Assembly: GCA_046483025.1 (NCBI GenBank)
Contig: JAWODZ010000126.1
Span: 11,981 to 75,980, forward strand
Origin: a bacterium
Lineage (GTDB): Bacteria > Zhuqueibacterota > QNDG01 > CAYUAG01
Length of the DNA stretch: 64,000 nt
Direction: 5' to 3'
The position numbers and the translations under genes are program-made. The notes under the pieces are model-generated. The model had not been told where the DNA came from. It made no database searches and was given only the letters and a program-made list of their open reading frames with translations. Positions within the stretch are counted from its first letter, which is position 1. Each line of letters begins with the position of its first letter. Below, one piece after another: positions 10,933 through 14,926 of this stretch.

Positions 10933-11376
10933 ATGTCCAAGAAAAGTCAATTACGCATAAAAAAAATTTTTTATGCTTCCACAGGCACCAAACAGGAGAT
11001 ACCACTCTATTCCTCCCGGGTTTCTGCAGGATTTCCATCTCCGGCTGAAGACTATATCACCAGACAGCTTGATTTAAACGATTTACTTATTAAACGGCCG
11101 GCTGCAACATTTTTTGTAGAAGTTGAAGGAGATTCTATGCTGGATGCAGGAATCCATGATGGAGATATCCTGGTTGTGGACAGAGGAGAAATGCCTGCTA
11201 ATAATAAAATTGTGGTGGCAGCTCTGGACGGAGAGCTAACCGTGAAAAAGATTGCTAAAATTAAAGGCAAACTTTATTTATTACCAGAGAATCCGGATTT
11301 TGATCCTATGGAAATATCCGGTGAGATGGAACTAATGATCTGGGGTATTGTGACCTATGTTATTCATAAAGTATGA
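10933..11376 (+). CDS. umuD: translesion polymerase V accessory subunit UmuD (S24 LexA-like peptidase)
   Basis: 147 aa. Ser-Lys dyad context GDSMLDAGIHDGD ... VVAALDGELTVKKI. Confidence 0.85.
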   Translation: MSKKSQLRIKKIFYASTGTKQEIPLYSSRVSAGFPSPAEDYITRQLDLNDLLIKRPAATFFVEVEGDSMLDAGIHDGDILVVDRGEMPANNKIVVAALDGELTVKKIAKIKGKLYLLPENPDFDPMEISGEMELMIWGIVTYVIHKV

Positions 11377-11529
11377 AGTACTTTTTATCGGAAAACAATA
11401 ATAAGTTTAATCTAAAAAGATATCTCCCACGAAATACACAAAACTCACTAAATAATTTATTTGATCTATATTTCGTGAATTCAGTGTCTTTTGTGGGAAT
11501 TACAGAATGAGCGTAAAAGTAGAACAATC

Positions 11530-12825
11530 ATGAAACAAACATCTCCCATATTTGCCCTGGTCGATTGTAATAATTTTTACGTGTCCTGTGAACGGGTATT
11601 TAATCCCTGTCTGGAGAATCATCCTACAGTGGTGTTATCCAATAATGACGGATGTGTGGTTGCCCGTTCCGAAGAGGTGAAAAAATTAGGAATTGCCATG
11701 GGCATGCCTTTATTTAAGTGCAGAGATGTGATAAAAAAATACGATATTGCAGTGCGTTCTTCAAACTATGCTCTGTACGGAGATATGTCCCGTCGGGTTA
11801 TGCAGACACTGGAGCAGTTTACTGACAGAATAGAAATATATTCCATAGACGAGGCATTTCTTCGTCTGGATAATTTACCCATTACTGATTATCACAAATA
11901 TGCAGAAAAGGTCAAACGTACCGTGTTTAAGTGGACAGGCGTCCCTGTTTCCATTGGTATTGCTGAGACCAAGACTCTTGCTAAGATTGCCAACAGAGTG
12001 GCCAAGAAGGAAAAAGCTCAAAGAGGAGTTATGAATATAGTTCGGCATCCTGATATAGATAGAATTCTGGAGTCAATTGAGATTGGAAAAGTATGGGGAG
12101 TAGGACGTCAATATGCCAGGATGCTGAGGAGAAATGGTATTAACAATGCAAAACAGTTTAAATATGCGGACAGGAAATGGATTAAAGGGAATATGACAGT
12201 TGTAGGGGAGAGACTTTTGCTGGAACTGGGAGGTGAGCCGGTCATTACCCTGGAACAAGCTCCTCCGCCTAAAAAAGCCATCTGCACTTCAAAATCTTTT
12301 GGAAGGCCGGTTGAGCAAAAGAGCGAAATGCATGCTGCGGTTACCGAGTATGCTGCCCGTTCTGCTGAAAAAGCAAGAAAGCAGGGTTCAGCAGCTTCCA
12401 TGGTGATGGTCTTTATGACTACAAATCCGTTTAAAAAGGAACCGCAGTATGCAAACTATAAACAGATGCGTCTTCCTGGTCCCAGTAATAATACCATGGA
12501 AATAGTAAAGGTTGCTTCCAGTCTGGGGGATCAGATATTCCGAGAAGGATATAAATACAAAAAATGCGGAGTTTTATTAACTCAGTTAATATCCTCTCAT
12601 ACTATACAGAAGAATTTGTTTACCGATGAACAGTTAACTGACAAAAGAAATAAATTGATGCAGGTGATTGACAGTATAAACAGTGTCTGGGGCAAGGATA
12701 AAATCAGAGTAGCATCAGCTGGTTTTACCAATCCCTGGGCCATGAGAAGGGAAATGAAGTCTCCTGAGTATACAACCTGCTGGGCAGAAATACCTGTTGT
12801 ACATTGTCAGGATAATAAAACATAA
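11530..12825 (+). CDS. umuC: Y-family DNA polymerase UmuC (Pol V catalytic subunit)
   Basis: [29 protein letters not shown]-terminus with SIDEAFLD motif. Start set at the internal Met ([17 protein letters not shown]). A 153-bp spacer separates it from umuD. Confidence 0.85.
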
Positions 12826-12959
12826 GAACTTGATAAATTATTAAGTATATATCTTCTATTAAATTAGGAAAGGATTCAATATTTGTTAAAGTTGAATATT
12901 TAGATAATTTTTGATAAATTGGAAAACGTAAAAATATTAAATTAATATCGGGTGTCTAA

Positions 12960-14267
12960 ATGAAAACAAGACATACTTGCATTATTGGTGATTCAAGAAA
13001 AATGGATGATATTAAAGATTCTTCCGTCCATTTAGTTGTAACTTCACCTCCTTATTGGCAATTGAAAGATTATGGTTCTGATGAACAAATAGGTTATTTT
13101 GATTCATATGAGGATTACATAAATAATCTTAATTTAGTATGGTTGGAGTGTTTTCGTGTTTTACACCCAGGTTGTAGATTATTGGTAAATATTGGAGATC
13201 AATTTGCTCGGGCTGTATATTATGGACGTTATAAAATAATACCAATAAGAACTGAAATTATTAAATTTTGTGAAACTATTGGTTTCGATTATATGGGTGC
13301 AATAATTTGGCAGAAAAAGACTACGATGAATACAACTGGTGGCGCAACGGTAATGGGTTCTTATCCATATCCTAGAAATGGCATTATCGAAATTGATTAT
13401 GAATTTATTTTAATTTTTAAAAAATCTGGTAAAGCTCCAAAAGTAAGTAAAAAAATAAAGGAGAAATCAAAAATAACTAAGGAAAAATGGAGAAAATATT
13501 TTTTAGGACATTGGTATTTTAATGGTGTTCGACAAAATAATCATATTGCTATGTTTCCCTTAGAATTACCTAAAAGAGCTATTGAAATGTTTACTTTTGT
13601 AGGTGATACAGTTTTAGACCCTTTTTTAGGGAGTGGAACTACATCCTTAGCAGCAATAAAGACAAATCGGAATTCTATTGGATATGAACTTAATGAGGAG
13701 TTTCTTCCTATTATTAAAGAAAAACTTAATGTAAATGAAAAGACTTTTTTTGATGATCATGATTTTGTTTTAAAACATCAAGATTATTTAAATATCAATT
13801 GGAAAAAAGAAATTCAGAAATTAAAATATATTTTTAATGATCCAATTAAGTTTAATAAAAAAATCGACCCAAATAAAATGAAATTTGGATCCAAAATTAA
13901 TATTTCTGATGGTATTAGCGGTGCAAAACGTGAAGAATATTTTTATGTAAAAAAAATTATCAAACCAAATTTGATAAAACTTTCAAATAATTTAATAATC
14001 AAATTAATTGGGGTTAAACCGTTTGAAAAGAAACAAAAAGATGCAATAAAATTTCTTGAGAATAAAATATTAAAACGACCGATTTTTTTAAAGTATGATA
14101 AAATGAAATATGATAAAGAAAATAATTTAATGGCATATGTATATATGAAAAATCGGACTTTCATTAATGCCCATTTAATAAAGAATCAATTATGTGGATT
14201 AGATGATAAATATGATTTTAAATATAAACAAAAATTTGAAACATTTATTAAAGGGGAATATAGATGA
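12960..14267 (+). CDS. beta-class N4/N6 DNA methyltransferase (SPPY then FxGxG order) with a C-terminal SNase-like extension
   Basis: Motif IV VVTSPPYW precedes motif I DPFLGSGTT. Residues about 300-435 are extra and resemble the staphylococcal nuclease fold: IKLIGVKPFE versus FRLLLVDTPE, and NLMAYVYMKNRTFINAHLIKNQLC versus [22 protein letters not shown]. Catalytic Arg/Asp positions are substituted. Lies in an AT-rich (about 27% GC) patch. Confidence 0.8.
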   Translation: MKTRHTCIIGDSRKMDDIKDSSVHLVVTSPPYWQLKDYGSDEQIGYFDSYEDYINNLNLVWLECFRVLHPGCRLLVNIGDQFARAVYYGRYKIIPIRTEIIKFCETIGFDYMGAIIWQKKTTMNTTGGATVMGSYPYPRNGIIEIDYEFILIFKKSGKAPKVSKKIKEKSKITKEKWRKYFLGHWYFNGVRQNNHIAMFPLELPKRAIEMFTFVGDTVLDPFLGSGTTSLAAIKTNRNSIGYELNEEFLPIIKEKLNVNEKTFFDDHDFVLKHQDYLNINWKKEIQKLKYIFNDPIKFNKKIDPNKMKFGSKINISDGISGAKREEYFYVKKIIKPNLIKLSNNLIIKLIGVKPFEKKQKDAIKFLENKILKRPIFLKYDKMKYDKENNLMAYVYMKNRTFINAHLIKNQLCGLDDKYDFKYKQKFETFIKGEYR

Positions 14268-14854
14268 AAACACGTGTTAAAATTAAAAATTCTGAAATTA
14301 AAGAATTACTAGGTACTAAACCAATTGAATTCCCAAAATATTCAACACAAATTATTAATTTAGCAAATCAGAATGCTCAAGGTACTAGACCTCCTGTTGT
14401 TGGTCAAATGAGTGAATTAATTCAAGAATTTACAGGGAAATCTATTTCAGAATGGGAGAAATGGTATTTAGCTAGGCATCCAGATGCTATTGATAAAGCT
14501 ACTGAAAAGATATCTGAAATGGTTGAGAAATTTTGAAATGTAATAAATGAAATTGATCGTAATATGATTGAAGATTGGGTAAAAGATTTAGTAATTATAA
14601 AAACTTTTATAGGATTAAAATTTCAAGAAGCAATTTTAAAGAAAACAGCGAATTTATTAAATACTTCATACCGTTTATCTGACTCTTTAGACGAATCTAA
14701 GGGGATCGATGGATATATAAATGATATTCCAATAAGTATCAAACCTGAAACATATAAAACTAAGAAGAGTCTCCAGGAAAAAATTGAAGTAAAATTTATA
14801 TATTATAAGAAAGTAAAAGATGGAATAAATATTGATTTAGAGGAAATAGTATAA
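14264..14854 (+). pseudogene. MTase-coupled partner ORF (candidate cognate restriction endonuclease) interrupted by a single in-frame TGA at 14534-14536
   Basis: Track ORFs 14264-14536 and 14564-14854 are in the same frame, separated only by one TGA and 9 sense codons. The ATGA overlap with the MTase stop implies translational coupling. A D...SIK segment (GIDGYINDIPISIK) is a possible PD-(D/E)xK-like motif. TGA is a genuine stop elsewhere in the window. Confidence 0.5.
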
Positions 14855-14926
14855 ATAAATAGATAATTTAATTATTAATAATCTGATTTTTTTATAATTA
14901 TAATTAAGACAAACAAAGGAGAAATT

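Follow-up and report, generated by a model that had tools for sequence, protein, structure and literature searches.

The stretch of DNA analyzed here (the window) comprises 64,000 nucleotides from a bacterium of the Zhuqueibacterota (assembly GCA_046483025.1, contig JAWODZ010000126.1, positions 11,981 to 75,980 of the forward strand) and carries a gene for a DNA methyltransferase whose C-terminal part had been aligned by eye, in an original prediction made from the letters alone, to the fold of staphylococcal nuclease (SNase). Our analysis of this gene, its relatives and its surroundings indicates that the tail is an SNase-like domain that has lost its catalytic residues and that is retained, under purifying selection, throughout a large family of methyltransferases. 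The gene and its parts are laid out as follows, with confidence values of predicted structures given as the predicted local distance difference test (pLDDT):

12960 to 14267, + strand: complete gene for a DNA methyltransferase with a C-terminal SNase-like domain, 435 amino acids (open reading frame list, Pfam, PADLOC).
13026 to 13721, + strand: beta-class N4/N6 catalytic core, residues 23-254 (Pfam N6_N4_Mtase, PF01555, 154.7 bits).
13044 to 13055, + strand: motif IV, SPPY, read from the translation (SPPYW is residues 29-33).
13617 to 13643, + strand: motif I, DPFLGSGTT, residues 220-228, read from the translation.
13722 to 13931, + strand: post-core extension and linker, residues 255-324, of which 260-300 are structured and 302-324 are lysine-rich with pLDDT below 50 (AlphaFold2).
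13881 to 13895, + strand: invariant K-F-G-S-K motif, residues 308-312, inside the lysine-rich linker (homolog alignment).
13932 to 14255, + strand: catalytically degenerate SNase-fold domain of the oligonucleotide/oligosaccharide-binding (OB) type, residues 325-432, about 108 residues (Pfam, AlphaFold2, Foldseek).

The core has what membership in PF01555 calls for, namely the profile match and a motif IV of the form (S/D)PPY that precedes a motif I of the form FxGxG; the order IV to I is the beta-class arrangement, and the serine variant of motif IV is typical for N4-cytosine enzymes. The REBASE-derived Type II methyltransferase model of PADLOC (MTase_II, PDLC03259, 423 positions) scores 568 bits and places residues 3-428 on profile positions 2-421, and the top Foldseek matches of the full structural model are TTHA0409 (2zie, 34% identity), rotifer N4CMT, M.RsrI, CcrM and M.PvuII. 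Together with 35% identity to M.MthZI, the SPPY motif suggests that the protein is an N4-methylcytosine (m4C) methyltransferase.

That an SNase fold follows this core was borne out by profile searches, by structure prediction and by comparison with a canonical nuclease. The hidden Markov model PF00565 (SNase; gathering cut-off 21 bits) matches residues 360-424 at 24.5 bits when the whole protein is searched and reaches 27.4 bits (E 5e-6) on the isolated tail. Modeled in full by AlphaFold2 from an 80-sequence alignment, the protein has a mean pLDDT of 78, rising to 85-94 for residues ~325-432, and a model of the tail alone has a pLDDT of 82-97 across the fold. In these predictions the elements run strand-strand-strand-strand-helix-strand-strand-helix-strand-helix, the same order as in SNase, forming an OB-type five-stranded barrel with three helices. 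Foldseek matched SNase variants after the methyltransferases (E ~4e-7, TM score 0.70-0.75, root-mean-square deviation 2.1 Å, 113-116 columns), and the next-best structural matches of the tail domain were the non-catalytic SN domains of Tudor-SN. In addition, when the tail was searched against 1.84 billion representative proteins, it retrieved a canonical stand-alone thermonuclease (P0256, which itself scores 97.8 bits on PF00565), and the tail is 38% identical to it over 108 residues.

Fold and profile searches were needed: phmmer with the tail as a single sequence found no match among PDB sequences, and when the tail was compared by hhalign with one SNase sequence, no more than the C-terminal half was aligned (probability 37%). 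Both stretches that had originally been aligned by eye were reproduced by MAFFT and hhalign, the SNase reference sequence used in our alignments being identical to 1STN and 1EY0. The extent first given to the domain (13860-14267, residues 301-435 plus the stop codon) has to be narrowed, however: the domain is real, but its folded part is only ~108 residues long, and residues 301-324 are a conserved linker, in which F309, G310 and S311 are invariant in 120/120 homologs and whose motif persists as [KR]FGS among distant representatives. Judged by profile match and predicted fold, the tail is a true SNase-fold homolog, descended from a real thermonuclease.

The fold has been kept without the active site. 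In SNase, D21, D40 and T41 are the Ca2+ ligands, and R35, E43 and R87 serve catalysis. We read residue correspondences, in SNase numbering, from a MAFFT alignment of the tail, its relatives, P0256 and SNase: D19-G20-D21 becomes K335-P336-N337 in the window protein, R35 becomes K348, D40-T41 becomes K353-P354 and R87 becomes N389, and the omega loop (SNase 47-55) is short by about nine residues. The original prediction had the catalytic arginines and aspartates replaced by K, N and V, which holds for K348 and N389 at R35 and R87 but not for the valine: V352 matches V39 of SNase, and the replacements of D21 and D40 are N337 and K353.

Conservation was counted over 82 full-length sequences from different species genomes, in which the D19 position is S in 61, the G20 position P in 77, the D21 position E in 66 and N in 9, the D40 position K in 72, the T41 position E or P, and the R87 position N in 60, while the E43 position is variable and unconserved. 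At the R35 position, 56 sequences have R and 25 have K (R or K in 81/82), and Y115 is matched by Y or F in 81/82. The canonical motif pair DGDT and D[TAC]PE was absent from every fused protein among 270 sequences examined, in which both nuclease motifs occur only in the stand-alone P0256; the NCBIfam equivalog for thermonuclease NucI gave 27.7 bits against a cut-off of 250. The features of an active thermonuclease, that is, the Ca2+ ligands Asp21, Asp40 and Thr41 and the catalytic Arg35/Glu43/Arg87 with an intact omega loop, are thus missing from the window protein. Because Ca2+ ligands and catalytic residues are replaced, the domain is a nuclease fold without nuclease chemistry and, to judge from its residues, cannot cut DNA, the active site having been lost in all relatives checked. 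Relative to SNase itself (PF00565; PDB 1STN, 1STA), the domain differs not only in the replaced ligands D21/D40/T41, the replaced catalytic E43/R87 and the shortened omega loop but also in a truncated C-terminal helix and in its position behind a methyltransferase, without a secretion signal.

Loss of catalysis has not been followed by decay. Relatives share on average 49% identity with the window protein in the tail and 74% in the core, and the median ratio of nonsynonymous to synonymous substitution rates (dN/dS; Nei-Gojobori method, 16 pairs with usable synonymous divergence) is 0.23 for the tail versus 0.04 for the core, values that are rough, with synonymous sites near saturation in most pairs. 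Many positions of the tail are nevertheless invariant (L341, G351, A362, L366, K369, L377, K397, N398, T400, F401, N403, H405, K408 and F426). Its isoelectric point is 9.7 in the window protein, and the median in relatives is 9.5. The original suggestion of an inactivated nuclease remnant was therefore half right: the domain is inactivated, but purifying selection and invariant residues show that it is not a decaying remnant. On these patterns of substitution, the tail is a working, non-catalytic domain under purifying selection.

The combination of an SNase-like module with a beta-class methyltransferase had been called non-standard, a view that its distribution contradicts. All of the best 120 protein clusters (68-80% identical, 419-465 amino acids) carry the fusion; PF00565 is already annotated in most of them, and one bears the name 'thermonuclease family protein'. 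In a scan with one genome per species, relatives are encoded in at least 597 genomes, and the best 80 of these align from query residues 1-3 to 415-435, and thus include the tail; these 80 span KSB1, Calditrichota, Omnitrophota, Patescibacteria, Ignavibacteria, Bacteroidota, Nitrospirae, Deltaproteobacteria, Elusimicrobia, Planctomycetota and methanogenic archaea. The same unbroken open reading frame of 420-480 amino acids was present in 81/81 genome loci from many phyla. Since the PADLOC model spans the full fusion, the fused family has in effect been catalogued already, and the gene adds one more ordinary member to a large family already present in databases. Our literature search on SNase-methyltransferase fusions found nothing relevant, and no experimental work on the role of the domain.

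Most of the best 150 matches in the tail-only search of the 1.84 billion representatives were collinear fragments of the same fusion, which indicates that the SNase-like module belongs to this methyltransferase family and is not shuffled between families. A few proteins (P0135, P0196, P0156 and P0150) have the SNase-like domain behind ABC_tran, IMS (UmuC-like) or Fer4 (4Fe-4S ferredoxin) N-termini; these are probably chimeric gene calls or assemblies. Plasmid and phage collections yielded only short relatives, matching the core.

The methyltransferase is the first gene of a two-gene cassette, the surroundings of which are:

14264 to 14854, + strand: gene for an MjaI-family Type II restriction endonuclease (PF09568), in two same-frame open reading frames, 14264-14536 and 14564-14854.
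10933 to 12825, directly upstream of the cassette: translesion-polymerase pair, umuD-like (Peptidase_S24, 147 amino acids) and umuC-like (IMS, IMS_C and DUF4113, 444 amino acids, TTG start).

The TGA stop of the methyltransferase overlaps the ATG of the endonuclease gene (ATGA). The two endonuclease reading frames match positions 1-63 and 75-164 of the RE_MjaI profile and are separated by a single in-frame TGA at 14534-14536, at a place where relatives have a Lys or Arg codon, so that the cassette as assembled has no intact, expressible endonuclease gene. An alternative genetic code can be set aside, since TGA also terminates the methyltransferase and eight other long open reading frames of the window. 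For genomic context we used a homolog, P0005, that is 78% identical to the window methyltransferase, and we found an intact counterpart of the endonuclease gene in a KSB1 genome (locus L001; 197 amino acids, 78% identity), where it likewise overlaps the methyltransferase stop. The split gene is likely a pseudogene, or else the product of an assembly error, and unless the stop is such an error the methyltransferase is probably now solitary in this organism. Independent damage to the endonuclease gene was seen in relatives: an in-frame stop in L006 and frameshifts in L053 and L056.

An MjaI-family endonuclease gene lies downstream of the methyltransferase in 74 of the 81 loci. In 62 of them tblastn detected it directly downstream, and in 12 it belongs to a divergent subfamily that Pfam recognizes with 137-170 bits; of the remaining seven, five are apparently orphan methyltransferases and two are too short for judgement. 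Some cassettes hold further genes. An open reading frame of ~100-120 amino acids stands between methyltransferase and endonuclease in L025 (5292-5591), L058 (5290-5613) and L062 (1659-2024), the one in L025 having only sub-threshold matches to helix-turn-helix families in Pfam and the one in L062 no Pfam match, and the 3' end of an XRE-type, controller-like gene lies just upstream of the methyltransferase in L018, L022, L024 and L044. Because such small reading frames and XRE-type genes occur in some cassettes, regulation varies from one cassette to another while the SNase-like domain is still kept.

In the window, the cassette is located between the umuD/umuC-like pair and a peptidyl-prolyl isomerase gene and forms an AT-rich island (12826-14926). 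Its GC content is 0.19-0.30 over 12826-14854, whereas the whole window has 0.386 and the upstream gene 0.41. This low GC content suggests horizontal acquisition. A search for direct or inverted repeats flanking the cassette returned only AT-rich matches at chance level.

Of the characterized relatives, MthZI recognizes CTAG, and M.MthZI, M.MjaI and M.BfaI are m4C CTAG enzymes of 303-364 amino acids (PMC5867850; PMC7708080). Like HVO_0794, they share with the window protein the catalytic family, the motif order, the SPPY motif and the partner endonuclease family RE_MjaI, but all four are 303-364 amino acids long and lack the SNase-like domain (PMC5867850). M.MthZI itself (355 amino acids) is alike over the core only, with no SNase match; on plasmid pFZ1 it adjoins a gene annotated 'MjaI family restriction endonuclease', and the two genes are convergent there, whereas those of the window are co-directional and overlapping. 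The window protein is thus placed in a long-form subfamily of CTAG-type methyltransferases, all characterized relatives of which are short. That this subfamily is specific for CTAG is inferred from the family to which the partner endonuclease belongs and from the 35% identity to M.MthZI; it would make the cassette, probably, an MjaI-type Type II restriction-modification system with CTAG/m4C specificity.

The site itself is scarce in the window, with 18 CTAG observed versus ~50 expected (observed/expected 0.36; 0.92-1.29 for seven other 4-bp palindromes), and four of the 18 fall inside the cassette (13372, 14309, 14385 and 14472). The scarcity is consistent with specificity for CTAG, but CTAG depletion is common among bacteria for unrelated reasons, and it is not specific evidence.

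As to what a dead nuclease fold might do on a methyltransferase, CcrM (PDB 6PBD) offers a functional parallel. This orphan N6-adenine methyltransferase of Caulobacter, which recognizes GANTC, resembles the window protein in having a beta-class core that is followed, after a linker, by an additional domain of ~90-110 residues at the C-terminus. In the CcrM dimer, this domain contacts the DNA backbone non-specifically and binds the non-target strand in trans, and deletion of it abolishes activity (PMC6787082). However, that domain has a SAND/PWWP-like fold and the window domain an SNase/OB fold, so that the two are not homologous (PMC6787082); CcrM is proposed as a functional analog, with no likeness beyond that of function. 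Tudor-SN (SND1) and the extended Tudor scaffolds have SN domains that differ in being eukaryotic, tandem or Tudor-interrupted and engaged in RNA pathways, and at 10-20% identity they have no close sequence kinship with the tail.

By this analogy, and from the residues and the predicted fold, we favor with moderate confidence the view that the domain is an accessory, metal-free, non-specific nucleic-acid-binding module of an MjaI-type modification methyltransferase and does not determine its target. The former active-site cleft keeps a basic residue at R35 and an aromatic one at Y115 and has gained a lysine at D40, which, in place of a Ca2+ ligand, fits a metal-free site for binding phosphate. 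The high isoelectric point of the domain and its structural matches to the SN domains of Tudor-SN are likewise consistent with DNA binding. Such a module would increase the affinity of the enzyme for DNA and might grip the non-target strand or DNA beside the site, perhaps reaching across a dimer (in trans) as the domain of CcrM does.

Several observations weigh against a DNA-binding role. Among the 82 sequences, variable residues stand at the positions of K84 and Y85, the phosphate contacts of SNase, and R87 has not been kept; hence the old cleft is only partly preserved. Dead SNase-like domains are pure protein scaffolds in extended Tudor proteins. The short relatives methylate CTAG without the domain, so that its contribution could be small or regulatory, and the CTAG specificity of the subfamily is itself inferred.

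The example of the extended Tudor proteins, in which dead SN-like domains play just such a part, makes a protein scaffold a serious rival: the domain would then bind no DNA and would support dimerization or oligomerization of the methyltransferase, or dock or restrain the co-translated endonuclease. We regard this as rather unlikely. At least five loci have an intact fused methyltransferase and no downstream endonuclease gene, the domain is strongly basic, and known beta-class structures dimerize through the catalytic domain (PMC6787082). Moreover, the methyltransferase and endonuclease of MthZI function as a pair without any such domain.

A sequence-specific module, whether it recognized the methylation site, as the original prediction had considered, or bound an operator in autorepression of the operon, is very unlikely. 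Some Type II methyltransferases, of the M.SsoII and M.EcoRII types, do autoregulate through extra DNA-binding domains. However, a role in target recognition is argued against by the short relatives M.MthZI, M.MjaI and M.BfaI (303-364 amino acids), which recognize CTAG without the domain, and specificity added to the methyltransferase alone would leave sites of the endonuclease, which has no such domain, unmethylated and exposed to cleavage. As for autorepression, some relatives keep the domain despite a separate XRE-type controller gene upstream, and a comparison of the sequences that precede the gene in 73 loci revealed no conserved operator, promoter motif, palindrome or other sequence, which counts against binding to an operator.

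That the tail is a functionless nuclease remnant in decay, or two genes joined by a sequencing error, would agree with the lost catalytic residues, with the GC content of the tail in the window copy, which at 0.20 is the lowest within the gene, and with the K that the window copy has at the R35 position, where the family usually has R; the conservation already described contradicts it, since the tail combines a dN/dS of ~0.23 with many invariant positions and a confidently predicted fold, and an open reading frame unbroken in 81/81 loci across many phyla is no product of sequencing error, which leaves this reading extremely improbable. Least credible of all is a bifunctional protein whose domain is still an active nuclease using other residues, for although the fold is intact, the R35 position basic and the D21 position Glu in most relatives, a Lys replaces the Ca2+ ligand D40 in 72/82, neither R87 nor E43 is retained, the omega loop is short and a dedicated, separate endonuclease gene accompanies the methyltransferase.

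Beyond the accessory DNA-binding module that we favor lies a more speculative proposal, which we consider improbable: that the dead domain and the invariant K-F-G-S-K arm together clamp the non-target strand or flanking DNA in trans within a dimer, or tether the co-translated endonuclease, and so aid the safe establishment of a very widely transferred, controller-free operon in new hosts. If true, such a DNA clamp or endonuclease tether would add an accessory mechanism that is new among Type II systems.

For annotation, the gene is best described as that of a Type II (MjaI/CTAG-type) N4-cytosine methyltransferase with a non-catalytic SNase-like domain; one or more relatives in databases instead go by the name 'thermonuclease family protein'. 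In biological terms the point is a modest but real one: selection maintains a dead nuclease fold in a very widespread, horizontally mobile family of bacterial and archaeal methyltransferases, whose characterized short relatives manage without it. Accessory domains that bind DNA non-specifically, in the manner of CcrM, may be a general means of tuning beta-class methyltransferases.
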